A stretch of DNA of 64,000 nt from positions 355,175 to 419,174 of the forward strand of contig CAWINH010000002.1 of the NCBI GenBank assembly GCA_963837425.1, given 5' to 3'. Under the pieces are notes generated by a model, which did no database searches, was not told the origin of the DNA, and was given only the letters and a program-made list of their open reading frames with translations. The position numbers were made by a program, and so were the translations under genes. Source of the DNA: an uncultured Chloroflexia bacterium (GTDB lineage: Bacteria > Chloroflexota > Limnocylindria > QHBO01). Shown here piece by piece: positions 3,516 through 58,012 of this stretch (position 1 is its first letter; each line of letters opens with the position of its first letter).

Positions 3516-6043
3516 GCCGATCGGTCGTCGGATGGGGATTCGGGCTGGCGCTGCTGGTGGCGATCCTCTCGATCGGGCAGGCCCAGGCGGCGGGTCCCCT
3601 GGCCGTGGGGGTCAGCTTCCGGCCGGTCGACCCCGTCGTCATCGGCAACGGCGCGACCGTCGTCGTTGAGCTGCGCGTGGTGGGTGGCGGGCCGCTGTCG
3701 GGGGAGCCGGTGGAGCTCAGCCTCGACGGGACGTACTACCGTCGCTCACGCACCGATGCCTCGGGCGCCGTGGCGTTCCCCCTTCCCAAGGACCTTGTGG
3801 CCGGTACTCACCCGCTGACCGCGGTCTATCCGGGACGTTCGAACACCTACCTGCCCGCGAGCGCGAAAGCGTCGCTCGAGGTTACCCCGTACCAGCTCCA
3901 GGTCCAGACCGTGCCGTCGCTTCCCGGGATGGGGTTCACCCTGGATGGGACCCGCTTCGTGGCGGGTGCCGATGGGTACGCTCGCATCCCGGTGTCGACC
4001 CCCGGCGATCATGTGCTCATCGCGCTCGACACGGAGTATGCGGCCGCCGGCACCACGGCGCAGTTCTCGCGGTGGACAGTCAACAACGAATACAGCCGCC
4101 AGGTGACGGTGAGCGTCCCGAAGGTCGGCCCGGTGCAGGCCGGATTCGACGTCTCCCGACCGGCCAGCCAGGTGTTCGTGGATCCGAGCGGGGGGCTCGT
4201 CAAAGCCGATCGCATCACGTCGTTCACCCTGCGGAGCAGCCTTGGGCAGGTGCTGACCTATCCCGACGGCCGGGAACGCGTCTACAAGGCCAGCCGCGTC
4301 GTGCGCCGCTCATCGGGCCTCGAATCGGTTGACGTCCGCTACAACGTCACCGATGTCGAGGTCGACGGTTCGAACGTTGTGAACGCCGGCCAGCAGCACT
4401 TCTACACCGCCCCCGACGCGGTCTGGCGGATCTCCCTGCTTCTCTACTCCGCGCGCATCCAGGCCAAGGATGCCCTGTTCGGTTTCACCGCCGGCAAGGC
4501 GGTGGAGATGATCTACCCGAGCGGGAAGTCGCAGATCGTCGACGTCGGGTCCAACGGCGAGGTCTACATTCCCTGGCTCGCGCGCGGGATCTACCGCGTG
4601 GCCGTGGCGGATGCCCCCGGCTGGGCCCCGTCCATGCCGGTCGCCCTCTCCCGCGACCAGGAGGTGGAACTTCGTGTCATCAGCTACCTCGACATGGGCG
4701 TCGCGGGGGCCGTGGCCCTGATCGTCATCTTCGGGCTCCTGCATCGCGGACGGCCGCACCTCATCCGCGACGCGGCGCGGGCGGTAGGTGCGGGTGTGTC
4801 CGGGCTGCGGCTGCCGCTCCCGGGAGCGGCTCACGCGCCCGCAGCCATGCGGCGGCCCGCGGAAGGGGAGCCGACGGCGAATGCCAGCCCACCACCCGTC
4901 GTCGCCAGCCCCCCACCCGTCTTGGCCAGCGCACCGAGCACTGCCACCCAGCAGCCGCAGCTCGCCCAGCAGGCAACCGAGGGCAGCGCGAAGGTCGCGC
5001 CGATCCTGGCAACGATTGCCAGGCGGTCGGACATCGACGCACTCGACCGCGTGGCTCTCGCCCACCATCGGACGATGGGCGTCAACGTTCCGGTGAGCCC
5101 CGACCTGATCGAGCTGGCGCCCTCGCTCTTCGGTCCGCAGGTCGACGAGCCCCCGCCCCCGACGAAGCCGAGGCCGACACCTCTTCCTCCGTTGCGGGCA
5201 CCCGAGAGCGCGGTCGGGGACGCAGCGCCGGCTCCGACCCCCGCAGCGCCGGCTCCGACCCCCGCAACGCCGGCTCCGGCCGAGCTCGCCGCGGAAGCGG
5301 CACCAGGCGTTGCCGATGAGTCGCTGCCATCGAAGCCCGCCCGGACCAGGCGGGCTGCAAAGCGTCCCACCACGAAGAAGGTGACGGAACCGTCGAAGGC
5401 CGTCAGGGCGAAGCGATCAACGGCCAACGCGGCACCCGCGGACGCCACGAGCGCCCCGAAGCGCGCGGCTGCGCCGAAGGCTGCCAAGACGAAGGTTCCC
5501 CGAAAGAAGGCAACCGCCACGACACCGGCGCGACGAGCGCCGGCGAAGGCCGCGAGTCGGCAGACGTCCGCATCGGCGAAGCGGACGGTCCGGAAGAAGG
5601 CGGCTCCAAGCGCTCCGCGCCGCGATTCGAGCCGGACGGTATCGGCGACTCGTGCGAGCTCGACCACGCCGGCATCCGGCACCCGGGAGACTGGCGGGAC
5701 CCGGCCGTCACGCACCCCCCGCAAGCCAGCGGCGGGGCGCTCGAGCCAGGCGGCGGTGTCGGGGGCCGCCGGGCAGCCGGTGGATGAACCGACCGAGACC
5801 CCGCCCAAGGGCGCGGAGATGCAGGCATGCCGCAACTGCGGGCTCGAGCTGTGGGCGGGCGCATCGTATTGCCGCCGCTGCGGCGAGCCGACGATTGGCG
5901 CCGGCGCCACGGACGATGCGCCGAGCGCTGGCCCACGCAGTCCGAAGCGGACGGCGACGCCTCGCGGTCGCAGTCGCCGCCGGCCGGCCACCCCCTCGGC
6001 GGGTTCCACTCGGGCCCGCGGCTCACGGCGAGGCAAGGGATGA
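3512..6043 (+). CDS. Membrane protein, paralog 2: same architecture as 1578-3515 but with a ~360 aa Lys/Ala/Pro-rich histone-H1/HU-tail-like cytoplasmic region before the C-terminal zinc ribbon (CRNCGLELWAGASYCRRCG)
   Basis: Intact 843 aa ORF whose ATG at 3512 overlaps the upstream stop (ATGA). It shows high identity to paralog 1, for example ITSFTLRSSLGQVLTYPDG and VDVRYNVTDVEVDGSNVVNAGQQ. The tail contains KRAAAPKAAKTKVPRKKATATTPARRAPAKAA-type repeats and an APAPTP tandem repeat at the DNA level (5215-5285). Confidence 0.6.
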   Translation: MSRSVVGWGFGLALLVAILSIGQAQAAGPLAVGVSFRPVDPVVIGNGATVVVELRVVGGGPLSGEPVELSLDGTYYRRSRTDASGAVAFPLPKDLVAGTHPLTAVYPGRSNTYLPASAKASLEVTPYQLQVQTVPSLPGMGFTLDGTRFVAGADGYARIPVSTPGDHVLIALDTEYAAAGTTAQFSRWTVNNEYSRQVTVSVPKVGPVQAGFDVSRPASQVFVDPSGGLVKADRITSFTLRSSLGQVLTYPDGRERVYKASRVVRRSSGLESVDVRYNVTDVEVDGSNVVNAGQQHFYTAPDAVWRISLLLYSARIQAKDALFGFTAGKAVEMIYPSGKSQIVDVGSNGEVYIPWLARGIYRVAVADAPGWAPSMPVALSRDQEVELRVISYLDMGVAGAVALIVIFGLLHRGRPHLIRDAARAVGAGVSGLRLPLPGAAHAPAAMRRPAEGEPTANASPPPVVASPPPVLASAPSTATQQPQLAQQATEGSAKVAPILATIARRSDIDALDRVALAHHRTMGVNVPVSPDLIELAPSLFGPQVDEPPPPTKPRPTPLPPLRAPESAVGDAAPAPTPAAPAPTPATPAPAELAAEAAPGVADESLPSKPARTRRAAKRPTTKKVTEPSKAVRAKRSTANAAPADATSAPKRAAAPKAAKTKVPRKKATATTPARRAPAKAASRQTSASAKRTVRKKAAPSAPRRDSSRTVSATRASSTTPASGTRETGGTRPSRTPRKPAAGRSSQAAVSGAAGQPVDEPTETPPKGAEMQACRNCGLELWAGASYCRRCGEPTIGAGATDDAPSAGPRSPKRTATPRGRSRRRPATPSAGSTRARGSRRGKG

Positions 6044-6387
6044 GGGCCGTGAAGCGTCTGACGCTGATCTGGTGCGCGGCCATTCTTGTGACGGCCGGCC
6101 TGGCGGGACCACCCCCGGCGGCTGCGGCAAGCCCCGGAGCCTCGCCGATCCCGGTCCTCGCCTATTACTACATCTGGTATGACCCATCGTCGTGGGATCG
6201 GGCCAAGTCCGACTATCCGATGCTCGGCCGCTACTCGAGCGACGATATCGAGGTCATGCGCCAGCACATTCGCTGGGCCAAGGATGCGGGGATCTCCGGA
6301 TTCATCGTCAGCTGGAAGAGCACCACGACCCTGAACCGCCGCTTGGAACAGCTGATCCAGGTCGCGGATCCGAATCGTTCGAGCTAG
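6040..6387 (+). pseudogene. Truncated secreted glycoside-hydrolase-like protein: signal peptide plus the first ~90 aa of a TIM-barrel-type domain
   Basis: ATGA overlap with the upstream gene. The sequence MRAVKRLTLIWCAAILVTAGLAG looks like a signal peptide. It is followed by YYYIWYDPSSWDRAKSDYPMLGRYSSDDIEVMRQHIRWAKDAGISGFIVSW, which resembles the N-terminus of GH99-like / GHL-type hydrolases; the family assignment is uncertain. The ORF stops after 115 aa exactly where the GC content drops. Confidence 0.35.
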
Positions 6388-8989
6388 CAATCAGTTATCC
6401 AGGGGCTGCAAAACCAACAACGGCTCCGCTCGACGCGACGCACATCGCCACAACCTCGACCAGTTCATCGGGGATTACGCCACCGATGCAGCATTCAACA
6501 TATCAGCAGGCCACTCGTCCTCTCATCAAGGACCTCGGGAGTACAGCGTCGCCGAACATGAGGAGCATCATCAATTCGACGAAGCACGACGCCTGCGGCT
6601 CCGAGCAGCGAATTCGCCCCGGCATCGTGACACTGCTTTGCAGCGACTGAAGTAACGAAGGATCACCGTTTGGCGGGCATCGTCGACGGCGATGCGTACT
6701 ACGTATTCGGTGGAACCCGACCGCGTAGCCCGAATACCCCGCCCAAGCTCGCCCGGAGTGCGAGATACAATGAAGGAACCAGCGGATCTCGATCGCCCCG
6801 GCGGGGCCGGGCTTCGATGCCGTCTGATCGGGGCACAACGGTCGTTGAATCGGAAGGACAGCGACACCCTGCGACGGGAGCTCGATGCGGCCTACGGTTC
6901 CTGGCCGGACACGGTGGGGGTCATCGAGCTCAACGGGTTCAGAAGGAACGGCGAGGTCGAGCCGAGCCTGAACTACAGCAACAACTAGCTCTGGGTCCCT
7001 CGCTGACATGATGGACAACGGGCACCAGAGGATACCCGATCTCGACTCGCCGCAGCCGACCTGGGTACCGTCTCGACGCCCGGGAACGACATGGTCGAGC
7101 CGGATCCTCACGCTCTGCCTCATCGTCGGGCTCCCCTCATCAGGAAGTAAGCATTCATCATTCACAGCAGACAAAGTAAGGCCGATTTCGGCTCGGCGTA
7201 CAGCGGCTGATCCCCGCCGAACGCGAGACAGACCGTCAAGAACAAGATAAAGAGGTGAAGGATGACGACCGCGCTGGAGGAGTCGGACTCATCCAGATTT
7301 CTTCACTAGGCGGCGGCTCCGCGCCTGCCGCTCTGCGTGAAGACGAAGCCGCGTGTTCGGCTTCACTCGCCCTCGACAGATCAGCGATAGTATCCCGACG
7401 TCGCGCTCGAGAAGATCAGCTCCTCGGCCGATGGAACAAGCTGAAACCAACCGCCCCAACGGCATCGACGATGGGGACTCAAGGTCCTGATGCACGTCGC
7501 ACATCGAACACACGAACCGCCGGATCGGGTCAAGAAGCTCGGGGGGAGTTCCGCTGGACGGATCAGGAACCAGCATCGCGCGCCGTCCAGCGCGAGCTGG
7601 CGACGACCCGACCCAGCACCCAGGCGGTGGTGATGGCGATTCGGAATGCGCACGAATACCGATCCAGATCGTGCTGCCCGGTGGCGAGGATGCGCCTCGG
7701 TGCCGCTGACCGTCGAGAGCGGGGCCGAGGCACGATGAGGGACCGTCGCGTGGCCGGGGGGTCCGGCCGGCCGGCCGTGCCGTGATCGAACAGTCGTTGC
7801 TGACCGGGGGCCTGGTCGCCGCCGGCCCCTTGCCGTCGCATTGCTCCTCGCCACCCTGCATGCCGATGACCCGGCGGACGGGCGTCGAGACCCGGGCTCC
7901 GGAGCCGGGGGAGCGGCATCATCTCGGGCCCCGCGTCGCCGAGCGCATCGCCGGTAGACCGCCGCCCGCCTCAGCGAGCCCAACCGCCTCGAGCACCGTC
8001 TCGGCTCTGCCCTCCCCACGGCACGACGCCTCCCGCCCGCCCGTCCCCAGTTAGGCACGCCCACCCGGCACAGCCCAGCCCGCCGGCCGAAGCCACAGGC
8101 CGACCACAGGCCGACGGCCGCGCTGCCGAGGCCGATCACAGCGACGTCCCGGCGCATTTTGCAATTCCGCGCCGCGTTTCTACTAGCATGGTTTCCCGAG
8201 GCATGGAAGCAGCAGGAAATGATTCCTTCCGCTCACTATCGACCATCGATCAGTTTCTGCGATCGAGAATCGAGCCGCGTGGTGAGAGAAACCCAGAGTC
8301 GCCGCGATCCGGTACCGGAAGGATCAGGTCGGATGCTCGCGTCGTCGTAGGAACACGGCAACCAGTTCAACGACGGGATGACCGAGCTCCTCAGCGCCAC
8401 GGCGCCGGACGACGTTCCGGTGGACGGTCTGCTGCGGGGGCAAGAGCCCGGGCGACCATCGGCCTCCCGGTCCACGAGCGAAGCCTGCGCGTACCTGCGC
8501 CCGATACAGCTGCGGATCAGCGCCGGGCTTCTTCCGAGTCGACGTCGGGTGGTGGACTTCATCTACGCCGACGGCGCGGACCGCTGCGGCATCCATGGAG
8601 AATCGCTCGTCAGCGGCCGACGTTGGCATCGGGGCCTACATCGTCCTCAGGTCTTTAGCGGCTTTCGCTCCTGCGGCAACCGAGCCCGCTGGCTCGCACC
8701 AGTGCAGCCCCTGCGGTCTAAATCGTTGAGCGCAGGCCAGCTCAGCTACGTCATGGCTTCCCAGGCTTTCTGGAAGGCGGACAGAGGCCACCGCGCGGCT
8801 CCCGGCGCGACGTCGCGCGATCGTCGCCGGAGCGGGCGTCGGCATGGTCGGCAGCGGACCCCGTTCCAGCTCGTCACGACGTTCAACGATGGGCGAAGGG
8901 ACGGGCGTCGAGAGCGCGACCGACTCGGCGTCGTCGTCGGGATTTCCGACAGTACCTCGACATCCTCCACCGACGCGAGTGCAGATACG

Positions 8990-10405
8990 TAGGCCGCGTC
9001 CCGGCTCAGCCTGGAGCGGGACCGTGCTGACCTGGCCGTCGGGCGTGTCACGCACCTCGATGCCCATGGCCGCCAGCTCGCCGCGGAGCGCATCCGAGGT
9101 GGCGTAGTCGCGGGCCTCCCGGGCGGCTGCGCGGCGTTCGAGGAGCTCCGCGGCGCCCCGGGCAGCTCGGTCGGCGCCGCCTCGGCCGGGGTCGAGCCCA
9201 GGCCCAGCACGCGGTCGAAGTCCAGCAGCAGCGCGCGGCGCTGGGCCGGCCGAGGTCGTCGGCGCCCGCCACGGCGTGCGCGACCGCCAGGGCGGCCGGC
9301 AGGCCCAGGTCGTCGCTGACCGCGTCGACGAAGCGGGCGCGGTAGGAGGCCAACGGCTCGGCGGCGAGGTCAACACGGCTGGCCGATCCGGCCTCGGCGG
9401 CCGCCCGACGCAGGCGCCGCAGGCCGGCGCTGGCGGCCTGCATGGCGTGTTCGGTGAAGTCGAGCTTGGACCGATAGTGGGCAGTGAGCGCCAGGTAGCG
9501 GAAGGCGAGCGGCTCGAAGCCCTTGGCGGGCAGGTCGGTGACGCGGATGATGTTCCCCGCCGACTTGGCCATCTTGGCCTCCGCCATGGTCAGGAACTCG
9601 CCGTGCATCCAGATGCTGACCACCGGATGACCCAGCACGCCCTCGCTCTGGGCGATCTCGTCCTCGTGATGGGGGAACTTGAGGTCGATCCCGCCGGTGT
9701 GGATATCGAACTGCTCGCCGAGGTACTTGACGCTCATGGCGGAGCACTCGATGTGCCAGCCCGGGAAGCCCTCGCCCCACGGCGACGCCCACTTCATGAC
9801 GCGACCCGGCTCGGCGGCCTTCCACAGCGCGAAGTCCTCCGGGTCGCGCTTGTCGGTCTCGACCTCGACGCGATGGCCGGCCCTCATCTGCTCCAGGCGC
9901 TGCCCGGACAGCTTCCCGTAGCCGGTGGGAAGGCGCTGACGTCGTAGTAGACGTTGCCCGCCACCTCGTAGGCCAGCCCGTTCTCCAGCAGGGCTGCCGT
10001 CATCTCGATCATCTCCCCGATGTGCTCGGTCGCGCGCGGCATGACGTCGGCGGGCGCCATGTTGAGCAGCCGCTCGTCGGTCAGCCAGGCATCGGTGTAG
10101 AACTCGGCGATCTGGGCCGGGGTCTTGCCCTCGACTTCGGCGGCCATCAGGATCGGGTCTTCGCCGGTCTCGCGCATGTGGCCCACGTCGGTGATGTTCT
10201 TCACGTAGCGGACCTCGTAGCCGAGGTACTCGAGACGCGCGCAGCAGGTCCCCGAACAGATAGGTCCGCAGGTTGCCGATGTGCGCGTAGCGGTAGACGG
10301 TGCTGCCGCAGGTATAGATCCCGACGCGTCCGGCGAGACGGGGACCAGCGGCTCGACCCGGCGCGTGAGCGAGTTGTAGAGGCGAATGGGAGGCAGGGGC
10401 GCCAT
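8990..10405 (-). pseudogene. cysS: Cysteine--tRNA ligase (CysRS) disrupted by at least 3 frameshifts (pseudogene of a paralog, or assembly indels)
   Basis: The N-terminus MAPLPPIRLYNSLTRRVEPL and the segment LEYLGYEVRYVKNITDVGHMRE sit in one frame. YTCGSTVYRYAHIGNLRTYLFGDLL, HIECS and the KMAKSAGN (KMSKS-like) motif sit in another frame. The C-terminus, ending ...LRGELAAMGIEVRDTPDGQVSTV, is in a third frame. The 3' end coordinate is approximate. Confidence 0.6.
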
Positions 10406-10459: not shown

Positions 10460-12285
10460 TCAGCTCGACTCGGCCTCGAACGTCGTCTCGCCGGCGGCCG
10501 CCTCCTCGCGCAGCTGCCGCAGCGCGCCCTGGTCGATGCCGCCGAATCGCGGCAGGTCGCGGATGCTGGCGCTGCGCGCCAGGCGCTCCTGCATCTTGCC
10601 CAGCACCAATGCCGAGAAGTCGGGCGCGGCCATCAGGTGGCGCAGGGTGTCCGCGGGGACCTCGAGCAGGATGGTCGGCTCCTGGGCCACGACATCGGCC
10701 GTCCGCGGGCTGCCGGTGAGCGCGGCGATCTCGCCGAACACATCTCCGGCCCCCATGCTCGACAGCGACCGGTACTCGCCCGAGGCGCTCGAGCCGGCCA
10801 CCGTCCGCCGAGAGGACGAAGTAGGCCGAGTTGCCGGTGTCGCCGGCGCGGGTGATGACCGTGCCGCTCTCCGCGTCCAGCACGCGGGCGCTGCTCACCA
10901 GGGCGTCGCGGTCACGCTGCGGGAGCCCGGCCAGGGCCGGGATGTAGCGCCCCAGGGCCTGCACGTCGGCCAGCGTGGCCCGGCGCCCGGTACCCACTCG
11001 CGCGGCGGTCGGGGCGGTGCGCAGCAGCTGGATGGTGCGGCGCCACTCGGCGGCCGGCTGGCCGATCCCCGGCAGCAGCGCGCCGGCCAGGGCGGTGACC
11101 ACCAGGGCCAGCGAGCTGATGAGGAACAGGGCCCGAACATCGAAGACGTCGGCGAAGCCGGCCAGGCCCATCCCGACCAGGTAGACCACGTCGCGCACCA
11201 CGTAGTTGGTGCTGAACACGCGGCCGCGCATCTCGCGCGGAGTGTTGCGCTGGGCGATGAGGCGGCCGGCCACGAAGGAGGGCGCGTTGAGGATGCCGGA
11301 GATGCCGATCAGGCTGATGGCCAGCCAGACGCTGGACGAGAGGGCGTAGGCCACGCCGGCCAGGCCCATCCCCAGGAAGCTGAGGACCAGCCAGCTGCCC
11401 TCGCGCAGCCGCTCCGCGTAGCGGGCCATCAGCAGGCTGCCGACCACGAAGCCGACCGAGGTGATGCCCTCCTGCAGGCCGTACTCGAACTCGGTGGCCT
11501 TGAGCACCTCGATGGCGAACGGCAGGAGCAGCACGTTCTGGAGGCCGAAGATGACCATGATCGGCGTGCGCAGGATGTTCATGGACGCGTAGGACCGGCG
11601 TCTTCCAGATGAACCGCGCGCCAACCGCCAGGTTGCGCACGACGTCGCCCACGGTCGTCTGCTCCTCGACCTCGAGCGGCGCAATGGTGACCAGCAGGAT
11701 CATCAGGCCGGAGAAGAGGAACGTGCCGGCATCGATGTAGAAGACGAGATCGGGCGCAATGCCGATGAGCAGGCCCGCGAGCGCGAAGCCGATGGCGGTC
11801 GACCCGAACTGGGCGATGGCCATCAACGAGTTCGCGGCGGCGAGCTCCTCGTCCGAGGCGATCTCGGGCAGCACGCTGTCGTTGGCCGGATCGAAGAACT
11901 GCTGGACCGATGCGGAGAGCAGCACGATCACGTACAGGCTGATGATGCTGTCGGTGGCGTGCAGGCTGATGGGGATGGCCGCCACCAGCCCGGCGCGCAG
12001 GATGGTGCTCACGACCATGATCGTCTTGCGGTTCCAGCGATCCACGAAGACGCCCGCGATGAGGCCGAAGAGGAGCGTGGGGGCGGCCGAGACCATGAGC
12101 ATGATCCCGACGTTGAGGATCGACCCCGTGCGCTGGAAGACGATGATGCCCGCGGCCAGCGAGGTCAGCGCGTCGCCGATGGTGGAGACCAGCTGCCCGG
12201 TCCACAGGTAGACGAAGAAGCGGTTGCGGAAGACCGCGAATGGGCCGACGGGAGCCGGGGGGGCTGATGGGGAAGCGGCAGTCAC
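10460..12285 (-). pseudogene. MFS transporter fused to a C-terminal cyclic-nucleotide-binding (cNMP) domain, carrying at least 2 frameshifts
   Basis: The 12 TM-type MFS sequence is split over two frames (10912-12285 and the 9048-11684 frame). The cNMP domain is in a third frame (10460-10801): GDVFGEIAALTGSPRTADVVAQEPTILLEVPADTL. Confidence 0.55.
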
Positions 12286-12385
12286 CGGGTTCCTCCGTGT
12301 GGTCGGCGGGCGGGCAGCCGGAGTCCGCGTGGGTCGCAGCGCATTCTGACAGCCGCGGTCGCGCGGTGCGGCCTCGCTCTACCAT

Positions 12386-12977
12386 GGGCGTCATGTCGCA
12401 CGCCGCCGAGCAGTACCCGCTGACGCTGGGCGAGGAACCAGCTTCTGCCCGGCCTGTGGCCGCCCGGTCGAGGCGCGCGTCCTGGAGCCGGACCACCGGC
12501 CGCGCCTGGTCTGCCCCGGGTCACGTCACCTGGCGGAACCCGAGGATGGTGGTCGGCACGCTCCCCATTCGTGACGGCCGGGTCTTCCTGGCGCGGCGCG
12601 CCATCGAGCCGCGCAGCGGCCGGTGGACTCACCCCGGCGGCTTCCTGGAGCTCGGCGAGGCGGCGCAGGAGGGCGCCCGTCGCGAGACGGAGGAGGAGAC
12701 GCAGCTCAAGGTCAGCGTCGGGCGCCTGATCGGCGCCTATTCGCGGCCGCGGGCCGGCGTGGTGACCATCGTCTACGAGGCGGACGTGGTGGGCGGGGAG
12801 CCGCTGCCGGGGGCGGAGACGAGCGAGGTGCAGGCTTTCGGCCCCGAGGAGATCCCGTGGGGCGAGCTGGCCTTCACAACCACCGCGTCGGCGCTGCGCG
12901 ATTGGATCGCCTCGCTGCCGGGCCACGGGCCGCGGTTCGAGCCGGAGCTGTACGTCACCGGCGACCCCGCGGACTGA
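12386..12977 (+). pseudogene. NUDIX hydrolase with an N-terminal zinc ribbon, frameshifted twice around the zinc ribbon
   Basis: The Nudix box GGFLELGEAAQEGARRETEEETQL lies in frame 0. The zinc ribbon FCPACGRPVEARVLEPDHRPRLVCPG is readable only in another frame between about 12440 and 12515. Confidence 0.5.
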
Positions 12978-13019
12978 GGCCCTGGCCGGCCTCCCGCCGT
13001 ACTCGGCCCCGTTCCCCGG

Positions 13020-13400
13020 CTCATTAGGCCCGTTGATGCATCCGCGGGGGAAGCCCGGTTCCGGCCGCGTTTCGTCCCCCTCCCCCACCCCGGCCCATAG
13101 GGGGTCCCTCAACCCGGCCCGTTCCCCGCGCTCCCCTCCCGGCCCCATATGCGGGGATCAGGCCTGCGCCAGGGGGGGTCCCGGGGGACCCCCCCCCCGC
13201 CCCCCGGCGGCCCTCCCTCCCCCGCCCCGCCCACCCGGGCCGGGCCCCGCCCCCGCGCACCCCTCCCCCCCCCCCCCGCGGGGCGGGTGGCCGGGGGGCG
13301 GGGAGCCAGCCGGGCCGGACAACGCCCCGGGCCTGGCCCGGGAAGGGGCGGGCCCTGACCAGGGCCCCGGGAGACGAAAGTCGGCGCGCGACGTCAGCCC
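13020..13400. repeat. C-rich/G-rich low-complexity block with homopolymer runs up to 13 nt and degenerate CCGGCCC-N-GGGG units; candidate G-quadruplex/i-motif tract or assembly artefact
   Basis: Direct reading of the sequence shows cccccccccc, ccccccccccccc, gggggggg and repeated ccggccc...gggg units. The block sits in the ~440 bp convergent intergenic space between the NUDIX gene and the fabF paralog. Confidence 0.5.
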
Positions 13401-13419
13401 GGATGACGCGGGTTCGCGC

Positions 13420-14670
13420 TCAGACCGGGCGGCGGAAGACGGCCACCGCGTTCTGGCCGCCGAAGCCGAAGCCGTTGATGATTGCCACCCCCACGTCCGC
13501 TCTGCGCGCCAGGTTGGGGACGTAGTCCAGGTCGCAGGCGGGGTCGGGCGTCTCGTAGTTGATCGTGGGCGGGATCAGTCCGTCGCGGATGGCCAGCACC
13601 GCGGCCAGGGCGGACATCGCGCCGGCCGCGCCCAGGGTGTGCCCGATCATGCTCTTGTTGCTGCTCACCGCCAGCCTGGGCGCGTGGTCGGCGAAGGCCG
13701 CGTGGATGGCCCTGGTCTCGGTGGCGTCATTGAGCGGGGTGCTGGTGCCGTGGGCGACCACGTAGTCCACTTCCTCCGGCTCGACGCCCGCGTCGCGCAG
13801 GGCGCGCTGCATGGCGCGGGCCGCGCCGTCACCCGGAGGGGTCGGGTGCGCTGATGTGGAACGCGTCGCCGGTCAGCGCACCGCCGGCGATCTCGGCGAT
13901 GACGGTGGCGCCGCGCGATGGGCGTGCTCGGCCGACTCGACCACCAGGATGCCGGCCGCCTCGCCGAAGACGAAGCCGTCGCGTCTGGCATCGAACGGCC
14001 GCGAGGCATGCTCCGGCTCGTCGTTGCGCTTGGAGAGGGCGCCCATGTTGGCGAGCGCGGCGAACGCCACCGGCAGGATCGCGCTCTCGGTGCCCCCGGC
14101 AACCACCGCGTCGGCGTCTCCGTGCTCGATCATGCGCTGCGCCTCCACGAACGCCTGCACCCCCGAGGCACAGGCCGCCACGCTGGTGACCACCGGGCCG
14201 CGGAGCCGGTTCTGGATGCTGATCTGGCAGGCGGCCATGGAGGGGGAGAGCATGGGCACCATGAACGGGCTGACCCGCGTCGGTCCCTGCTCGAGATAGA
14301 CGCGCTCCCCGAGGGCCACCTCGCCGATCCCGCCGCCGCCGGTGTTGACGACCACGGCGATGTCATCCCGGTTGGCGTCGCTGATCTCGAGGCCGGAATC
14401 ATCGATCGCCTGGCGGGCGGCGGCCACGGCCAGCTGGCTGAATCGGCTCATGCGGCGCGCGGCCTTGAAGTCCATCCAGTCGCGTGGCTCGAAGCCCTTC
14501 ACCTCCGCCGCGATCTGGACCTCCTCGCCGGAAGGGTCGTAGGCGGTGATGCGGGCCACGCCGCTGACGCCACCGGTCAGGTTGGACCAGTAGCTGGCCA
14601 CGTCATTGCCGATGGGGCTGATGACGCCCATGCCGGTGACGACGGCTCGACGGGCGGGGTCGCGGCTCAT
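13420..14670 (-). pseudogene. fabF: 3-oxoacyl-ACP synthase II paralog (KAS II), interrupted by two closely spaced compensating frameshifts with an internal stop
   Basis: The N-terminal 265 aa (13873-14670) and C-terminal 130 aa (13420-13812) are in the same frame. Between them, about 75 bp (13813-13915) is in the wrong frames; the correct peptide [28 protein letters not shown] is readable in a third frame. Confidence 0.6.
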
Positions 14671-14679
14671 CGGGCTGCC

Positions 14680-15963
14680 CTAGGCCTCGTAGCGGCGCAC
14701 GATGACCGTGCTGTTGTGGCCGCCCAGCCCCATCGAGTTGGAGAGGGCCACCCGCACGTCCGCGGCGCGCGCGGTGTTCGGGACGTAGTCCAGGGTGAGC
14801 TCGGGGTCGGGGTGACGGTAGTTGATGGTGGGCGGGATGCAGCCGGTCTGCACCGCCTTCACGCAGACGTAGCCCTCCAGCGCCCCGGCGGCGCCCATGA
14901 GGTGTCCGGTCATGCTCTTGGTGGAGCTCACCGCCAGCCGCTCGGCGTGCGCACCGAAGACCTCGCGAATCGCGGTCGTCTCGTAGCGGTCGTTCAGCGG
15001 CGTGCTCGTCCCGTGGGCGTTGATGTAGTCGACCGCCTCGGGACCGATGCCGGCCCGCGCCAGCGCCGCTCGCATCGCGCGCTGGTTGCCCTCCCCCCGC
15101 TCGGCCGGGGCGGCCATGTGGAACGCGTCGGCCGACGAGCCGTAGCCGATCACCTCGGCCAGCGGGGTCACGCCGCGGGCCAGGGCGTGTCCCAGCTCCT
15201 CGAGGACCAGCACCGCCGAGCCCTCCGCGATGACGAAGCCGTCGCGGGTGGCGTCGAAGGGCCGGCTGGCCTTGGTCGGATCGTACGCGCCGGTGTCCGG
15301 GTCGACGGGAGAGCCGAGCGCCTTCATCTGCTGGAACCCGGCCAGCGCCAGGGGCACCACCACGGCCTCGGCGCCCGCCCCCAGCATCAGGTCAGCCTGG
15401 CCGCGCACGATGGCCTCCATGGCTTCGCCGATGGCGTGGCCGCCGGTGGCACAGGCGCTGACCACGGCCATGTTGTGCCCGCGCAGCCCGTACTGGATGC
15501 CCACCATTCCTGACGCCGCGTCCGGGATCATGTGCGGCAGCAGGAAGGGCGAGACGCGGCCGGGGCCGCGCTCGAGGAGGGTCTGGATCCCCTCGCTCAT
15601 GATCCCGATCCCGCCGATGCCGGTGCCGAAGACGATGCCGAAGCGGTCGCCATTGGCCTGGGCCGGGTCGAGGCGCCCGTCCGCGGCCAGCAGGCCGGCC
15701 CGGCGCAGCGCCTCGCCCGCGGCGGCCACTGCGAAGTGCGTGTTGCGGTCATGCCGGCGCGCGTCCTTGGCGTCCATGTACTGGGTGGCGTCGAAGCCCT
15801 TGACCTCGCCCGCGACGTGGACCTCGAATGCCGACGTGTCGAAGAGGGTGATGTCTGCGATGCCGGAGCGGCCCGCGGTCAGGGCCTCCCAGGTCGCACC
15901 GTCCCCGATGCCGACCGGCGAGACGACCCCCACGCCGGTGACGACGGCCCGGCGGTCGCTCAC
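14680..15963 (-). CDS. fabF: 3-oxoacyl-[acyl-carrier-protein] synthase II (KAS II), intact
   Basis: KAS II motifs are present: [25 protein letters not shown] and GHLMGAAGALE. A GTG start at 15963 overlaps the fabD stop (GTGA). Confidence 0.8.
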   Translation of the reverse strand: MSDRRAVVTGVGVVSPVGIGDGATWEALTAGRSGIADITLFDTSAFEVHVAGEVKGFDATQYMDAKDARRHDRNTHFAVAAAGEALRRAGLLAADGRLDPAQANGDRFGIVFGTGIGGIGIMSEGIQTLLERGPGRVSPFLLPHMIPDAASGMVGIQYGLRGHNMAVVSACATGGHAIGEAMEAIVRGQADLMLGAGAEAVVVPLALAGFQQMKALGSPVDPDTGAYDPTKASRPFDATRDGFVIAEGSAVLVLEELGHALARGVTPLAEVIGYGSSADAFHMAAPAERGEGNQRAMRAALARAGIGPEAVDYINAHGTSTPLNDRYETTAIREVFGAHAERLAVSSTKSMTGHLMGAAGALEGYVCVKAVQTGCIPPTINYRHPDPELTLDYVPNTARAADVRVALSNSMGLGGHNSTVIVRRYEA

Positions 15964-16934
15964 GATGGGAGCCAGGCGGCGAGACCCCCGGGGGCGTCGG
16001 TGGCGTGGGCGCTGGTGTCGGGCGCGATGCGGCGGATCAGGCCGGTGAGCACCCGGCCGGGCCCCACCTCCACGAAGTCGGTGACCCCGTCGGCGGCCAT
16101 GCGGCGCACGGTGTCGGTCCACTGCACGCCGTGCACCAGGTGCTCGGTCAGCTCCTTGCGCAGCCCGTCGGCCGTCTGGATCATGCTGGCATGCACGTTC
16201 CCGAGCATGGGCACGCGCGGCTCGCGGAACGGGACCTTGGCCAGGATCTGGCCGAACTCGTCGCGAGCGCGTCGCATGAGCGGGGAGTGGCTCGCCACGC
16301 TGACGGTGAGGCGCACCGCCTTGCGGGCGCCAATGGTCTTGCTCATCTCGAGCGCGAAGACGAGGGCAGGGATGACGCCGGAGAGCACGATCTGTCCCGG
16401 CGCGTTGGCATTCGCGACCCCGATCTCGCCGTGCTGCCGCGCGTGCTCGACGACCTCGTCAACCTGTTCGTCGGAGAGGCCGATGACGGCCCCCATGCCG
16501 CCGTCGATGCCGCGCTCCTGCATGATCCGTCCCCGCTCCCGGACCAGGTGCAGCGCCTCCTCGAAGTCGATGGCATCGGCGGCAACCGCAGCGGCGTACT
16601 GGCCTGCCGAGTGGCCGGCCAGGACCCGGGGAGCCAGCTCCAGGCCGGCGGCGGCTGCCTGGGCGCGCAGCGCCTCGAGATAGGCGACGCTGGTGGCCAG
16701 GATGGCGGGCTGGGCGTTGACCGTGAGGTCCAGGTCCTCGGCCGGTCCCTCGAGGATCATCCGGGTCAGCGGAAAGCCCAGCGCCCGATCCGCGCGCTCC
16801 ATCACCGCGGCCGCCTCCGGCGAGTGCTCGAGCAGGGCGGCGCCCATCCCCACGTACTGCGAGCCCTGGCCGGGAAAGACAAAGGCATGCACGCGGGGGG
16901 GTGCGATGGACTGCGGGTCGGGTGGGTTCGTCAT
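15960..16934 (-). CDS. fabD: Malonyl-CoA:ACP transacylase
   Basis: FVFPGQGSQYVGMG and GHSAGQYAA motifs are present. The ATG overlaps the stop of the upstream M20 gene (ATGA). Confidence 0.8.
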   Translation of the reverse strand: MTNPPDPQSIAPPRVHAFVFPGQGSQYVGMGAALLEHSPEAAAVMERADRALGFPLTRMILEGPAEDLDLTVNAQPAILATSVAYLEALRAQAAAAGLELAPRVLAGHSAGQYAAAVAADAIDFEEALHLVRERGRIMQERGIDGGMGAVIGLSDEQVDEVVEHARQHGEIGVANANAPGQIVLSGVIPALVFALEMSKTIGARKAVRLTVSVASHSPLMRRARDEFGQILAKVPFREPRVPMLGNVHASMIQTADGLRKELTEHLVHGVQWTDTVRRMAADGVTDFVEVGPGRVLTGLIRRIAPDTSAHATDAPGGLAAWLPS

Positions 16935-18371
16935 GCTGAAACGTCAGTGTCTCGTATCCCGGGGAGTATAGCCGTCACCGCCGACCGCTCCCACTCGGGT
17001 GGCGGTCGATCAGGTGCAGAACGCTCCACGACCCGCTGCAGCACGGGCAGGCCAAAGGCCAGGGCGCTCACCGGCAGGCGCTCGTCGTTGGCGTGGAAGA
17101 GCGAGAGGAACGGCACCTGCGGGTCCAGGCGGAGAGGCATGAAGCCGTAGGTCGGGATGCCCAGCAGGCCCAGTGCCTTGGCGTCGGTGCCCGGCGTGAT
17201 CATCATCGGCAGCGGGGTCGCCTCGGGATCGGCTGCGGACAGGACCTCCCGCATGATCGTCACGATCTCGGCCGCGGCGGGCCATTCCACAGGGGGCATG
17301 GTCATCACCGCATCCACCGTCACCTCCGGCCCGGCCACCGCCTGCAGGTGCTCCAGGAAGGCCGCCTGGTCCGTTCCCGGCAGGGTCCGCACGTCGATCT
17401 CCGCTTCGCCGCTGCCGGGCACCACGTTCATCTTGGCGCCGGCGCGGATGACGTTGGGGGTGACCGTGTCGCGCAGCATGGCGTCGAGGGAGCGCCGCAG
17501 GACCGGGTCGGCCACGGCGTCGGCGAGCGCTGTCCGTGCCGCGGCCTCGTCACCCGGGCGGCCAGCTCCGCCACGTTGCCCAGGCCCAGTCCATCGAAGA
17601 ACCCCCGGACGACGGGGATCACCCGGGCCGGTCGCGGGTCGCCCGCCAGGCGGGTGATGGCCGTGGCCAGCTTGATCGCGGCGTTGTCCGGCGAAGGCAT
17701 CGAGCCGTGCGACGGCGTCCCGCTGGCCCGCACCCGGGTCCAGACGATCCCCTTCTCGGCCACCTGGATAGCGTATGACCGCCTTCCGTTAAGGGTGATC
17801 GAGTAGCCGCCGACCTCGTTGAGGGCGGCGGCGGCCGGCTGACCGGCGGCATCGGCGAAGAGATCGGGCCGCTGCTGCACCCAGTGCAGCGCCCCGTGCT
17901 GGCCGCCCGCCTCCTCGTCCGCCAGGGCGGCGAAGATGACCTCCCGTCGTCGCGCTGCGCCGGATCGCTGGAGCGCCACCATGACCTCCAGCTCCATGGC
18001 CACCATCTCCTTCATGTCGACCGCGCCGCGGCCCCAGACGGCGCCGTCCAGCAGCTCCGCGCCGAACGGGTCGCGCGTCCGCCGTCCGCCTCCACGGGGA
18101 CCACGTCCACGTGGGAGAGCAGGATGACCGGCGGCGCGGGGTTCGGCACGGTGGCGGGCAGCCGCGCGAAGCAGGAACCGCGGCCCGGGGCCGTCTCCAG
18201 CACCTCCGCCGGGATGCCTGCCGCGGTGAGCACCTCCGCGCAGTAGGCGGCGGCCGCGTCTCGCCGCCGGTCGAGTCGCGGCCGGCGGCGGTGTCGGTGA
18301 TCCCGGCGGGTTGACGCTCGGGATGCGGATAGCGCGCGGAGGTGATCCACGCAGGCGTCGAGAGCGGTCAT
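16931..18371 (-). pseudogene. M20 family metallopeptidase (ArgE/DapE-like), disrupted by at least 4 frameshifts
   Basis: The N-terminal pieces MTALDACVDHLRAL, IRIPSVNPPG and LLSHVDVVPV alternate between two frames. The GRGAVDMKEM motif and the dimerisation-domain C-terminus (16931-17515) are in further frames. Confidence 0.55.
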
Positions 18372-18399
18372 CCGCGCTACGGTACCGCAGCCCCGGCGG

Positions 18400-19310
18400 G
18401 CGATTAGCCGGCGCGCTCGGGTCGGCTCGGCCGCCGCGGAGACGCTCGCGCACCAGCCGGCCGAGCGGTAGCTCCAGCGCGAGCAGCACCAGGGCCACGA
18501 TCAGCAGCACCGGGAACCGGCCGGCCAGCCCCAGGACGAGCAGGCCGCCCAGGAAGAAAGCATGGATCATGACCCGCGTCGCAAAGGACAGGCGCAGCTC
18601 GAGGATGGCGGCCGGCACCACCCGGCTCTCCGCGATCCGGGCCCCAGACCCCCCGGGCGGCGATGCCGGCGAAGATCGCCAGGGTACCGCGAACAGACCC
18701 AGCCCGCCGCCCGGCCGGGTTCGGTCAGCGGCTTGAGCACGATGAACGGCAGCGCCCAGCAGCAGGATCCCGTAGGCGGCCAGCGGACTGAGGAGCTGGA
18801 GCCACTCACCCCGGGCGGCCGGCGGCCCGCGCGCGGATCCATCGGGTCACCAGGCTGAAGCCCAGGGTCACGAACAGCCAGGCGTAGAAGTTGCCGGCGG
18901 GGACGCCGAACCAGCCCTGGCGTGACCCAGGTTGGCCCAGGTCCAGAGGCCCATCCGGATCGCGATGGCGTCGAAGGCCAGGTCCAGGCTGATGGCCAGC
19001 ACGCTGTCGACGAAGGGCGCGTAGCGGCGGCGCACGCCCAGCGCGTCGGTCAGGCGCATGGCGCCGGCGATGATGAGGGCCCAGGTGAGGCCGATGACCC
19101 GGCGCGCGGTCGATGGTCAGCACCCAGTGCGGGCTGTAGTGGTAGCTCTCGAAGATGAGCTGGTCGCCCTCCTCCAGCAGGATGCCGAACACGGCCGCGG
19201 TGGCCAGCTCCAGGAAGGGGAGCCGGCCACGACGGAGGGCGGCGACTGCGGCGCCGATGAAGAAGAGGGCACCCCGATCTCGAGGCCGAGGTGACCGGAT
19301 CCATCCGCCC
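18400..19310 (-). pseudogene. Multi-pass membrane protein of unknown family, fragmented over three frames
   Basis: Hydrophobic segments AAVFGILLEEGDQLIFESYHYSPHWVLTIDRA, MRLTDALGVRRRYAPFVDSVLAISLDLAFDAIAIRMGLWTWANLG and FYAWLFVTLGFSLVTRWI read as one protein only after frame switching. Confidence 0.3.
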
Positions 19311-25763: not shown

Positions 25764-27212
25764 ATGGCAACCGAGGTCCTCGCGCCCCACGTCCCCGTCT
25801 ATCTCGCCGGCGAGTTCGTGGAGGCCGGGCCGTCCGCTCGAGGTGCGCAACCCGGCGACCGGGAGAGCTCGATCGCGACCACCTTCCAGGCCGGTCCCGC
25901 GGAGCTGGAGCGCGCAACGATCGCGGCAGTCGAGGCGTTCGCGAAGACCCGCCGCCTGGCGAGCTACCAGCGCCGCGACGCGCTGGCGCATGTGGCGCAG
26001 CGGATCAGCGAGGAGGCGGACGAGCTGGCGGAGCTGCTGACCCGCGAGTCGGGCAAGCCGATCCGCGATGCGCGGGGCGAGGTGGCGCGCGCGGCGCTCA
26101 CCTTCCGCACCGCGGGCGAGGAGGCGCTGCGCATCACCGGGGAGTGGATGCCGCTCGACTGGAACGCGGCCAATCGCGGCCGATCGGGGATCGTGCGCCG
26201 CTACCCGATCGGGCCGGTGGCGGGGATCAGCCCCTTCAACTTCCCGCTCAACCTCGCCGCGCACAAGGTCGCGCCGGCGATCGCGGCCGGGCTGCAGCAT
26301 CGTCCTCAAGCCCCCGTCGGTCGACCCGCTGGTCATGCTGCGCGTGGCGCGCTACATCGACGAGACGGACCTCCCGGCCGGCGCGGTCAGCATCCTGCCC
26401 ATGGATCGGCCCACCGGGGACGCCATGGTCCGCGACGAGCGGTTCAAGCTGCTCAGCTTCACAGGCTCCCCATCGGTCGGCTGGAAGATGAAGGCCGATG
26501 CCGGCAAGAAGAAGGTCGTCCTCGAGCTGGGTGGCAACGCCGGTGCGATCGTGGACGAGACCGCGGACCTCGACTGGGCGGTCAGCCGCCTGGTGTACGG
26601 CTCGTTCGCCTACGCCGGGCAGGTCTGCATCAGCGTCCAGCGCATCTACGTCGTGGCGTCGGTCTACGACGAGTTCGCGGCGCGCTTCGTGGCGAAGGTG
26701 CCGCGAGCTCAGGATCGGCGATCCGCTGGATCCGGCCACCGACCTGGGGCCGATGGTCGATGCCAAGGCGGTGGCGCGCACCCACGAATGGGTGACCGAG
26801 GCAATCGACGCCGGCGCCAGCGCCCTGGTCGGCGGCGAGCCGGGCGGCCTGGTCTATCCGCCAACCGTGCTCGTGGACGTGCCGAAGAGCGCGCAGGGTG
26901 TGCGGTGAGGAGGTCTTCGCGCCGGTGGTCAATCTCTTCGGGGTGCCGGACTTCGCGACGGCGATCGACGAGATCAACGACAGCCAGTTCGGGCTCCAGT
27001 GCGGGGTCTTCACGAACGACATGGAGCGGACGCTCACCGCGCACGACGAGCTGGAGGTTGGCGGGATCATCGTCAACGACATCCCCACCTGGCGGATCGA
27101 CCCCATGCCCTACGGCGGGGTGAAGGACTCGGGCCTTGGTCGCGAGGGGCTCCGCTGGTCGATCGAGGACATGACCGAGCCGCGGCTCCTCGCCTTCGCC
27201 CGGCCGCTGTGA
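25764..27212 (+). pseudogene. NAD(P)-dependent aldehyde dehydrogenase, at least 3 frameshifts
   Basis: Pieces in frames 25764, 26068, 26498 and 26898 make a full ALDH: FNFPLNLAAHKVAPAIAAG, ELGGNAGAIVDETADLDWAV, QVCISVQRIYV, GLQCGVFTNDMERT. Confidence 0.6.
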
Positions 27213-27556
27213 CCCTGACGACCCGCTACGCGCGGATCCTGCGCGCCGAAGAGCTGCGCGACGGCGAGCTGATCCCGGTGGTGATCGACGGGACACCGGT
27301 GGTCGTGGTCCGGCATGCCGGCGACTTCTACGCCGTGCAGAACAACTGCAGCCACCAGGATTTCCCGCTCACCGAGGCCGGGTTCGACGCGCGCGATGCC
27401 GTGCTCGTGTGCGCCTGGCACGGCGGCTGCTTCGACGTGCGCACCGGCGCCGCGGTCGCACTGCCGGCAACCGAACCGGTCGAGACCTTCCCGGTGCGGG
27501 TCAGCGTGGACGGCTGGGTCGAGCTCGGCCTCACGGGGAGCCTGGCGCGCTCATAG
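27209..27556 (+). CDS. Rieske [2Fe-2S] ferredoxin domain protein
   Basis: CSHQDFPL...CAWHGGCF (CxH..CxxH). The GTG start overlaps the ALDH stop (GTGA). Confidence 0.6.
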   Translation: MTLTTRYARILRAEELRDGELIPVVIDGTPVVVVRHAGDFYAVQNNCSHQDFPLTEAGFDARDAVLVCAWHGGCFDVRTGAAVALPATEPVETFPVRVSVDGWVELGLTGSLARS

Positions 27557-27588
27557 TGCCTCGGGGCCCATCGGTATACTCGGCCGCG

Positions 27589-28338
27589 GTGACGATCGAG
27601 GCGCTTCCGTTCGTGAACTGGATCTTCTGGGCGACGCTCACCGCCGGCTCGCTGCTGGTGGTGGGAGTCACTGAGCTTGCCGGCGGCACGACCCGCGGGT
27701 ATCGGCTGTTCATGGCCTGGCTGCTGGCCGCCTGCGCGGCGATCCTCCTGCTATCGGAGCTGAACCTCTCGTCGGGGACCGTTGTCGACACGACGGGTGG
27801 GATGCGCCGTCTGCTGGTGATCGCCTTCGTGGCGGGAACGATCGCGTACCTTGTCGCCTCCCTGGCCAGGCTGCCGCGCGCCGCCCTCGCGGTCGGGACG
27901 GCGCTCATCGGCGTCCTGGCGCTGGCAGCATTGGCGGTATCGGCCCCGACCTGGAGCTCCACGCTCTTCACCGGCCAGCTGATCGCGGCGGCGCTGGCGC
28001 TCGGCTCGGTGAAGGCGGCGATGTTGCTCGGCCACTGGTACCTCGTCACGCCTCGTCTCTCTCCGACGCCGCTGCGGCGGATGATGTGGCTGCTGGTCCT
28101 CGCCCTGGCCCTGCAGGGGATCCTTTTCGTCGTCGCGGTGCTGGTGGTCAGCAGCGGGCCGCTCGGCGGCCCGATCGGCCCGCTCACCTGGCTGCGCGTG
28201 CTGGTCGGGATCGTGCTGCCCCTCGGGATCACCGTGCTGGCACTCATCGCCAGTCGTGCGGCCTCGCTGCAGGCCAGCACCGGACTGCTGTACATCGGCC
28301 TGGCGTTCGTGGCGGCCGGCTCGCATCGCCGGCTCGAG
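27589..28338 (+). CDS. Polytopic membrane protein of unknown function, reading in frame into moaD with no stop
   Basis: Six or more hydrophobic helices (FWATLTAGSLLVVGV, LLAACAAILLL, LIGVLALAALAV, LVLALALQGILFVVAVLVV, VLVGIVLPLGITVLALIA). An AGGAGG RBS immediately precedes the moaD ATG at 28378 in the same frame. Confidence 0.35.
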
Positions 28339-28377
28339 TATCACGTTCCTCACTGGCGTGCCGGTTTAGGAGGCCAC

Positions 28378-28620
28378 ATGCAGGTCCGCATCCGCTTCTT
28401 CGCCACCCTCCGCGAGGCGGCAGCCGATCGCACCACGCTGACGCTGGCCGATGGCGCGTCGATCGAGGACGCGTGGGCGGAGCTCGCGTCTCAGTGGCCG
28501 GCGCTCGCGCCGCACCGCGAGTGGGTGCGGGCCGCGCTGAACGGGGCGTACACGACCTTCGACGCGCGGGTCGCCGATGGCGATGAGGTCGCCTTCCTGC
28601 CGCCGGTCAGCGGCGGCGGC
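28378..28620 (+). CDS. moaD: MoaD/ThiS-type sulfur carrier ending in GlyGly
   Basis: MQVRIRFFATLREAAADRTTLTLADGASIEDAWAEL...DGDEVAFLPPVSGG followed by a GGCGGCGGCGGC run. Confidence 0.55.
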
Positions 28621-29036
28621 GGCCCTCGGCCTGACCGATGCGCCGATCGACGTGGCGGCCCTCGAGCGTGAGCTCGCGGACACGGCTCACGGCGCCGTCG
28701 TCACCTTCGTGGGACGAGCGCGCAGGACCGCGGACGACGGGCGCGCGGTGATCGAGCTCGAGTACGAGGCCTACCACGAGATGGCGGAGTCGGTGCTGCG
28801 CCAGATTGCGCGCAGAGGCCCGCGAACGCTGGCCAGGGGTGGCGGTGGCCGTCGTGCACCGCGTCGGTGTTGTGCCGCTCGGAGAGGCGGCGGTGGCCAT
28901 CGTCACCGCCGCGCCGCATCGTGCGGCGGCCTACGAGGCGAATCGCCACGTCATCGAGGCGATCAAGGATCGTCTGCCGATCTGGAAGCGCGAGCGCTTC
29001 GCCGACGGGAGCGAATGGAAGCGCCCCGGCGCCTAG
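28600..29036 (+). pseudogene. moaE: Molybdopterin synthase catalytic subunit MoaE with one frameshift; possibly fused to MoaD (MoaX-like) through the GGC repeat
   Basis: AVVTFVGRARRTADDGRAVIELEYEAYHEMAE is in one frame, and ERWPGVAVAVVHRVGVVPLGEAAVAIVTAAPHRAAAYEANRHVIEAIKDRLPIWKRE in another (shift near 28815). Confidence 0.5.
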
Positions 29037-29620
29037 CCCTCGTGGGCTGCCAGATGGGCCAGCCACGCGCGCGCGGCCGCCGGTGACGCCAGGCGCACGG
29101 CATGCAGGTGCGGATACGCGGCGATCAGCTCCGGGTACTCGCGCCGACGCCGCCGATACGTCGAGAGGATCCACCACAGCAGGCCGTCGCGCCTGAAAAG
29201 ATGCATCCCGACCGTCTCGTGGTTCCCGGTCCCGGGCCACAGCTCTTCACGGCTCCGCCCGCGTCGCCAAGTCCTGGCCAGGTACTGGCGGAGAATCGTG
29301 CGCAGCGAAACGTCGAGCCAGACGACCGCCGCGGCCCGGCCCCAGACGATGTCGCGGGTGACCGAGTAGTTGCCGTCCACCACCCAGCCGTCGCCGGCGG
29401 TGGCGCGATCGACGCGCTCGCGCATGACCGGGTCGGGGACCTCGGTCCAGTTCCGTTCCCAGTGCAGGGCATCGAGCTCCACGTACGCGACCTGCAGGAC
29501 CTCCGCCAGGGCGCGGGCCAGCGTCGACTTGCCCGATGCGCTGGTCCCCACCACGCTCACGCGCCGGTAGGGGAACGGGACGAATCCGGCCCGCTGAGCC
29601 GCCAAAGCCTGCGATCCCAT
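29033..29620 (-). CDS. P-loop NTPase, adenylate-kinase/shikimate-kinase-like small kinase
   Basis: Walker A motif VVGTSASGKSTLARALA; about 195 aa. Confidence 0.5.
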   Translation of the reverse strand: MGSQALAAQRAGFVPFPYRRVSVVGTSASGKSTLARALAEVLQVAYVELDALHWERNWTEVPDPVMRERVDRATAGDGWVVDGNYSVTRDIVWGRAAAVVWLDVSLRTILRQYLARTWRRGRSREELWPGTGNHETVGMHLFRRDGLLWWILSTYRRRRREYPELIAAYPHLHAVRLASPAAARAWLAHLAAHEG

Positions 29621-29703
29621 GGGAATCCGGATTCTAGGCGCGCGGTGCGGCCGGGGGTCGACGGGTGGCGAGCACTGGCCTCGCCGTGCAAAATGCGCGG
29701 TGA

Positions 29704-57060: not shown

Positions 57061-57128
57061 TCGCTGTCCTCATTCGACGCTGTGGCGGCGCCGTGGCGCT
57101 GTGGCGACGCCGTGGCGCGTACAACAAA

Positions 57129-57155
57129 CCCCCCGTTCGTCAGGACGAAGGGGGG
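57129..57155 (-). terminator. Rho-independent terminator for tRNA-Ala
   Basis: CCCCCCGTTCGTC-AG-GACGAAGGGGGG hairpin followed on the minus strand by TTTGTTGT. Confidence 0.5.
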
Positions 57156-57191
57156 CTCCATTCGCGGTACCACCATGACTTGACCGACGGA

Positions 57192-57267
57192 TGGTGGAGC
57201 TGGGGGGACTCGAACCCCCGACCCCCTGCATGCCATGCAGGTGCTCTCCCAGCTGAGCTACAACCCC
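57192..57267 (-). tRNA. tRNA-Ala (anticodon GGC), CCA-encoded, G3:U70 identity pair
   Basis: The reverse complement reads GGGGTTGTAGCTCAGCTGGGAGAGCACCTGCATGGCATGCAGGGGGTCGGGGGTTCGAGTCCCCCCAGCTCCACCA. This folds into a canonical cloverleaf with anticodon loop ATGGCAT. Confidence 0.85.
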
Positions 57268-57953: not shown

Positions 57954-58012
57954 CCGGCAGGGCCTGGGAGTTGGCGGCCAGGCGACAGGGTGCAACTCAC
58001 GGCGCGTGCTCG

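Follow-up and report, generated by a model that had tools for sequence, protein, structure and literature searches.

The locus lies in a stretch of 64,000 nucleotides (the window) from an uncultured bacterium which, according to the NUDIX protein encoded here, belongs to Candidatus Limnocylindria (Chloroflexota). A NUDIX hydrolase gene and a gene for a FabF-like beta-ketoacyl synthase converge in it, and their stop codons are separated by about 440 non-coding nucleotides (12978-13419). The convergent arrangement given in the original prediction agrees with the Pfam domains of both products (Table 1). When a codon-position HMM is trained on long genes from the window, its non-coding call covers exactly 12975-13422. 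The block of C and G runs described earlier at 13020-13400 is present at that place, but the interval is slightly too small, since the unit to be considered is the whole spacer.

Table 1. Features at and around the NUDIX/FabF junction, frameshifted genes, and inserts found at the same junction in relatives (window coordinates unless a relative locus is named)
Feature	Coordinates	Strand	Remarks
NUDIX hydrolase gene (YjhB-like, zinc ribbon + NUDIX)	12393-12977	+	Pfam NUDIX, E=2e-18; stop TGA 12975-12977
NUDIX zinc ribbon	~12444-12518		Frameshifted; read in the other frame
Spacer left flank	12978-13064		Ordinary complexity, lineage-specific
C-rich low-complexity core	13065-13277	+	C ~60%; carries C10 and C13; G-rich G4-forming side on the - strand
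Palindrome GGGGGGGTCCC-GG-GGGACCCCCCC	13172-13195	+	In the C-rich core
G-rich segment	13278-13365	+	G 53%; in the - strand transcript C exceeds G here
GC palindromes	13326-13342, 13350-13367	+	Within or at the edge of the G-rich segment
Spacer right flank	13366-13419		Ordinary complexity, lineage-specific
Imperfect inverted repeat around the core	13064-13080 / 13369-13385
G-quadruplex motif (PQS)	13280-13303	+	Single
G-quadruplex motifs (PQS)	13076-13096, 13106-13146, 13180-13236, 13245-13277	-	Four merged clusters
FabF-like beta-ketoacyl synthase gene	13420-14670	-	Pfam ketoacyl-synt N and C; stop TGA (TCA on +) 13420-13422; frameshifted by a compensating pair of indels (near 13838 and near 13915)
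cysS			Frameshifted; HSPs to the intact L001 gene (466 aa) fall in three frames
MFS transporter gene			Frameshifted; three frames
Insert in L023	4442-4707		(GAGCGCC)n tract
Insert in L096	1365-1552		MITE-like element of 188 nt with long inverted repeats at its ends
Insert in L107	1279-1562		REP-like GGGAGCGCTGGGCGC units
Insert in L128/L129	3442-3653		Lineage-specific, non-coding

The NUDIX protein of the window is 76% identical to P0001. The FabF-like gene is the last of a set on the minus strand, in which a FabD-like acyltransferase gene (15963-16934) precedes two ketoacyl synthase genes; the other synthase gene (14683-16122) stands in tandem to the FabF-like one, and the two products are about 55% identical in the C-terminal domain. 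This acyltransferase/synthase/synthase arrangement is conserved in the relatives.

The GC content of 13020-13400 is 82% (C 48%, G 34%). The low-complexity core is shorter, about 245 nt (13065-13310), and is bordered within the spacer by about 90 and 110 nt of ordinary complexity. The plus strand is asymmetric, a long C-rich part being followed by a shorter G-rich one. Two long homopolymers, both of C on the plus strand (C10 at 13189-13198 and C13 at 13265-13277), match the runs of 10-13 nt in the original prediction, and the longest plus-strand G run in the block is G7 (13172-13178). In the rest of the window, as in 642 kb of sequence from relatives, C/G runs reach 7 at most, and their counts drop about 5- to 7-fold with each extra base until they end at that length. 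Extrapolation of this empirical decay gives, per 64 kb, about 0.02 expected runs of at least 10 and about 1e-4 of at least 13. The long C/G runs of the block thus far exceed chance for the lineage.

In other respects the block is about what its composition alone predicts; this applies to its folding, the number of its hairpins and its internal repeats. RNA folding of the two strands gives z-scores of 0.40 and 0.21, no better than shuffled sequences. Three perfect hairpins are observed against 2.1 expected from 500 dinucleotide shuffles (p = 0.35), and the longest perfect-hairpin arm, 11 nt, has p = 0.054 in the same shuffles. TRF reports a degenerate CCCCG period with 18 copies, and a (CCCCG)n tract extends over 13190-13279. 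The degenerate units mentioned earlier are marginal: the best direct repeat, with 33 matches in 44 positions, is equalled by 3 of 200 shuffles, and a model of tandem units of 55-60 nt, in which five units were aligned, is unconvincing at a column identity of 55%.

Nothing was found that would compete for the spacer as a gene, an RNA family, a promoter or an intrinsic terminator. Two internal open reading frames, 13149-13358 on the plus strand and 13024-13260 on the minus strand, were rejected as coding; the HMM calls them non-coding and their translations are of low complexity, rich in Pro, Gly and Arg. Rfam 15, which includes 6C RNA, gives no match inside the spacer when 12000-14500 is searched at E <= 10, and none in the block when the whole window is searched at gathering thresholds. 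A scan for tRNA and tmRNA genes in the window yields only tRNA-Ala (57192-57267). The scan of 12000-14500 reveals neither a promoter-like site nor an intrinsic (Rho-independent) terminator in the spacer.

These data bear on three specialised identities that could be suggested for the block: a phase-variable contingency locus, a 6C-like small RNA with C-rich loops, or a mobile element of the REP or MITE type. We consider all three largely refuted and, taken together, very improbable. Homopolymeric contingency loci are the poly-G/C tracts that underlie phase variation in Neisseria, Campylobacter and Bordetella. The two poly-C tracts of the block have similar slippage-prone lengths, 10 and 13 nt, where slipping takes about 8 nt or more and 10-13 nt is typical of slippage switches, with the reservation that consensus indels make these lengths uncertain. 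Unlike the tracts of contingency loci, they lie between convergent stop codons, neither in a promoter nor near the start of a reading frame, and their length could switch no gene. The sequence permits hairpins whose loops are C-rich (one is at 13250-13283), but against a 6C-like RNA stand the empty Rfam search and a folding z-score of about 0.3. The imperfect inverted repeat that flanks the core is reminiscent of a mobile element; REP and MITE elements are multi-copy, however, and the block is a single copy, no second one having been found in the window, in about 125 relative loci, or in collections of plasmids, phages and viral contigs.

As signs of G-quadruplex potential we took PQS, in which four or more runs of three or more G are joined by loops of 1-7 nt, and G4Hunter scores above about 1.5-2; the block has sequences of both kinds. 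The G4Hunter calculation that had been recommended for the region was run: six of the seven segments of the window with an absolute score of at least 2 fall in the block, the extreme being -2.5. The block is the strongest G4-prone cluster of the window. The earlier suggestion of G-quadruplexes or i-motifs on either strand stands as far as the motifs are concerned, since they are computed on both, but G-quadruplex folding is predicted only in the minus-strand RNA. With G4 energies enabled, the minimum free energy of that RNA changes from -291 to -358 kcal/mol, a gain of about 67, with three G-quadruplexes in the fold; the full-length fold of the plus-strand RNA contains none under the same settings. 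The predicted potential is therefore strongly one-sided, on the minus strand.

Surveys of prokaryotic genomes by PQS and G4Hunter (e.g., PMC12563890, PMC6943126) report enrichment of G-quadruplex sequences mostly near gene starts and promoters. The block resembles the G4-prone intergenic sequences of GC-rich prokaryotes: it is intergenic and strand-asymmetric, it contains G3+N1-7 motifs, and its G4Hunter scores reach 2 and more. It differs from the surveyed sequences in that its position is between the 3' ends of two genes, no relative conserves it, and its minus strand bears G13 and G10, homopolymers which the lineage otherwise avoids. If real, the block is best filed as an unconserved addition to this known class.

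The original prediction also proposed a barrier to replication or transcription between the two genes. For termination by Rho we used the sequence criteria of RhoTermPredict (PMC6407284), namely about 78 nt of untranslated RNA in which C exceeds G and C recurs every 11-13 nt, with a pause hairpin no more than 150 nt downstream. In windows of 78 nt along the plus-strand RNA, the C/G ratio is 2.53 at 13060-13137 and peaks at 3.87 at 13200-13277, which is the maximum of the 64 kb; it exceeds 1 all the way from the NUDIX stop codon to about 13337. The minus-strand RNA has C/G of 1.2-1.7 over its first 140 nt or so, from 13420 to 13280, with 1.72 at 13357 to 13280. The rut-like pattern is thus found in both directions, with the spaced C in all three scored windows, although such criteria are poorly specific at 70% GC. 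GC-rich pause hairpins occur within 150 nt downstream, in the plus direction at the two GC palindromes and at 13392-13408, and in the minus direction at 13195-13172.

In having untranslated windows with high C/G and spaced C, followed by GC hairpins, and in having them in both directions, the block is similar to Rho-dependent terminators. Natural rut sites are G-poor and hence unstructured, whereas here complementary G-rich tracts on the same RNA can pair with the C tracts. The block can likewise be compared with the bidirectional terminators of convergent genes, being a single element between 3' ends with a predicted action on two strands; known elements of this kind consist of a compact hairpin accompanied by A and U tracts, whereas this one is 440 nt of low-complexity sequence and has no U tract.

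These properties suggest a possible course of events. The block would be a real, lineage-specific insertion of low-complexity, GC-rich non-coding DNA where the NUDIX and FabF-like genes come together by their 3' ends. Its core may be a decayed C-rich microsatellite, approximately (CCCCG)n with poly-C, expanded by replication slippage. Transcription running past the NUDIX gene would produce an untranslated RNA that is very rich in C and poor in G, of the type that loads Rho, with GC hairpins downstream. Transcription running past the FabF-like gene would produce about 140 nt of RNA with C above G and then G-tract RNA capable of forming G-quadruplexes; in this direction the non-template DNA strand is G-rich, which would favour R-loops. 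Convergent read-through should then be halted or slowed in both directions, although by differing means.

A genuine insertion that behaves in this way because of its composition, terminating or insulating transcription, is the explanation we favour, albeit tentatively. A more specific version presents the block as an authentic, strand-asymmetric insulator, born by microsatellite expansion, with Rho loading on the NUDIX side and a G-quadruplex or R-loop roadblock on the FabF side. We regard it as a rather doubtful proposal; if true, it would provide a natural example of a terminator arising de novo from low-complexity DNA in one uncultured Chloroflexota lineage.

Comparison with relatives limits how much function can be attributed to the block. 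About 95 loci, taken from GTDB genomes and from JGI metagenomes, keep the order of a NUDIX gene followed by a convergent FabF gene, and none of these syntenic relatives has a C/G low-complexity block or a C/G run of 8 or more. The junction is found there in three states. In the first, which is usual in the closest relatives by NUDIX identity, the two stop codons overlap (GGCTAGCC, the '20-nt' class). In the second, a spacer of 510-660 nt carries a conserved gene on the minus strand for a membrane protein of about 155 aa (MTEINGLRLAYRGF...). In the third, there are non-coding inserts which are lineage-specific and unrelated to one another (L023, L096, L107 and L128/L129 in Table 1).

The membrane-protein gene (MTEINGLRLAYRGFVTGLAA...FAYFFGRFFTVR...) lies between FabF and NUDIX in about half of the Limnocylindria relatives (loci L010-L054 and L101-L137; e.g., L013 4433-4951 and L011 4439-5021), while the other half and the window are without it. 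No remnant of it was found in the spacer of the window. Neither blastn, tblastx nor local alignment judged against shuffled sequences detects similarity of this spacer to the spacers of about 125 relative loci. A weak resemblance to the relatives' ancestral junction with overlapping stops (GGCTAGCCGGCCGCCTCGTA) is seen at 12984-13004. When the insert is removed in silico, the stop codon of FabF is not restored, which weakly favours an old and real event with later decay.

Since the block is absent from relatives and the junction is variable, we regard it as an insertion particular to this lineage, at a site prone to indels. The NUDIX/FabF junction is, judging from the loci compared, a recurrent insertion hotspot, where Candidatus Limnocylindria genomes have acquired and shed sequence time and again. 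The barrier proposed earlier thus agrees with the composition of the block, but conservation lends it no support. A needed function is unlikely, because none of the roughly 95 syntenic loci has the block and many have zero spacer; for the latter reason, any termination-like behaviour is probably incidental and not selected.

The same comparison is relevant to the view that the block is real but functionally inert, a neutral remnant of a slippage-expanded microsatellite which is tolerated between two 3' ends. The complete lack of conservation among relatives agrees with this, as do the relatives with overlapping stop codons, which show that a spacer is not required, the structure that does not surpass composition, and the degenerate CCCCG periodicity. 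Yet more than 200 nt of untranslated RNA with C/G up to 3.9 would be expected to engage Rho even if unselected, and the G13 and G10 tracts of the opposite strand would likewise be expected to form G-quadruplexes or R-loops. Long G/C runs are, moreover, strongly avoided in the lineage, so their persistence here is not obviously neutral. We consider complete inertness unlikely.

The alternative of most practical concern is that the core (about 13065-13310) is wholly or partly junk or mis-called sequence that a long-read assembly or its consensus took, in a badly polished part of the contig, from a single read or very few; a genuine but shorter GC hairpin region might have been the trigger. The original prediction had raised the possibility of a poly-G sequencing or assembly artefact. 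As far as the Illumina two-colour chemistry is concerned, the explanation does not suit the data: this artefact consists of long pure G/C runs at the ends of reads or contigs, whereas the block stands in the interior of its 682,090-bp contig, is of mixed sequence with runs no longer than 13 nt, and is surrounded by about 200 nt of ordinary spacer. The broader concern was justified, considering the frame-breaking indels nearby and the lack of a second assembly among the collections searched.

The size of the contig, 682 kb, implies a long-read assembly, and it is from this size that we infer the platform. Many related soil MAGs have been obtained from Nanopore reads only, with Flye and one round of Medaka (PMC12313526); the contig considered here may, but need not, have the same origin. 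There are at least eight frame changes in the 4.9 kb from 9.0 to 13.9 kb, at each of which the conserved protein continues in a shifted frame, and the genes affected are listed in Table 1. The zinc ribbon of the NUDIX protein, FCPACGRPVEARVLE..RPRLVC (FCPACG...RLVC), can be read only in a shifted frame, which means two compensating indels; together with the indels in the FabF-like gene, these are within about 450 nt of the block on either side. The broken cysS, an essential gene, points to consensus error and not to biology, as judged from the sequence. A screen for frame switches gives about 20 further candidate sites in the window (e.g., in 1-1600, 17000-19100 and 26300-30600). The Peptidase_M20 gene (16934-18621, minus strand) is split into two open reading frames that correspond to profile positions 18-104 and 112-205, and the split is probably a consensus frameshift near 17550. 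With so many single-base indels around the block, the lengths of C10 and C13 are untrustworthy.

We found no independent assembly of the species: the best NUDIX identity is 86% among GTDB representative genomes and 86-87% in JGI metagenomes. A collection of 5.8 billion proteins returns only the NUDIX protein of the window itself (P0002, 143 aa, 100% identical), on one contig, and the exact-protein look-up was empty. The block is thus known from a single assembly. This and the indels count in favour of the artefact, as do the fact that no C/G run in 642 kb of relatives reaches 8 and the fact that nothing in the block rises above compositional expectation.

The position of the core argues against it. 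The core is centred in about 200 nt of lineage-specific spacer of normal complexity, exactly between two complete gene ends. Junk would rarely be expected at such a spot, whereas real low-complexity DNA would be tolerated only there. Deletion of the core does not recreate the ancestral end of FabF, real insertions at the same junction are present in Illumina-assembled relatives, and none of about 13 relative loci derived from long reads has such a block. We therefore consider an artefact somewhat unlikely, though it deserves serious attention. That the block is genuine, the active and the inert readings being taken together, seems to us reasonably probable.

If authentic, the block is a poly-C spacer dense in G-quadruplex and i-motif sequences, made recently at a junction where close relatives have no spacer. 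It could then show how far such DNA insulates transcription, or what replication cost it imposes, in a high-GC bacterium. Its main practical value is cautionary, with about one frame-breaking indel per 600 bases around it. Genes called on this contig will come out in fragments, and these calls, the counts of G4 tracts and any conclusions on phase variation need confirmation at the level of reads.

Two other features of the window may be mentioned. A segment of about 4 kb (5150-9250) is lower in GC (0.63-0.67), and the HMM sees no clear codon-position signal there; the Pfam matches in it are only weak fragments of Big_3_5 and GH99 and, at the right edge, the C-terminal domain of CysS. Its genes may be atypical, of foreign origin or severely frameshifted. 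In the non-coding region 56957-58029, a tandem repeat with a unit of 175 nt (57643-57963; 1.8 copies, 95% identical) adjoins the tRNA-Ala gene, which is on the minus strand.
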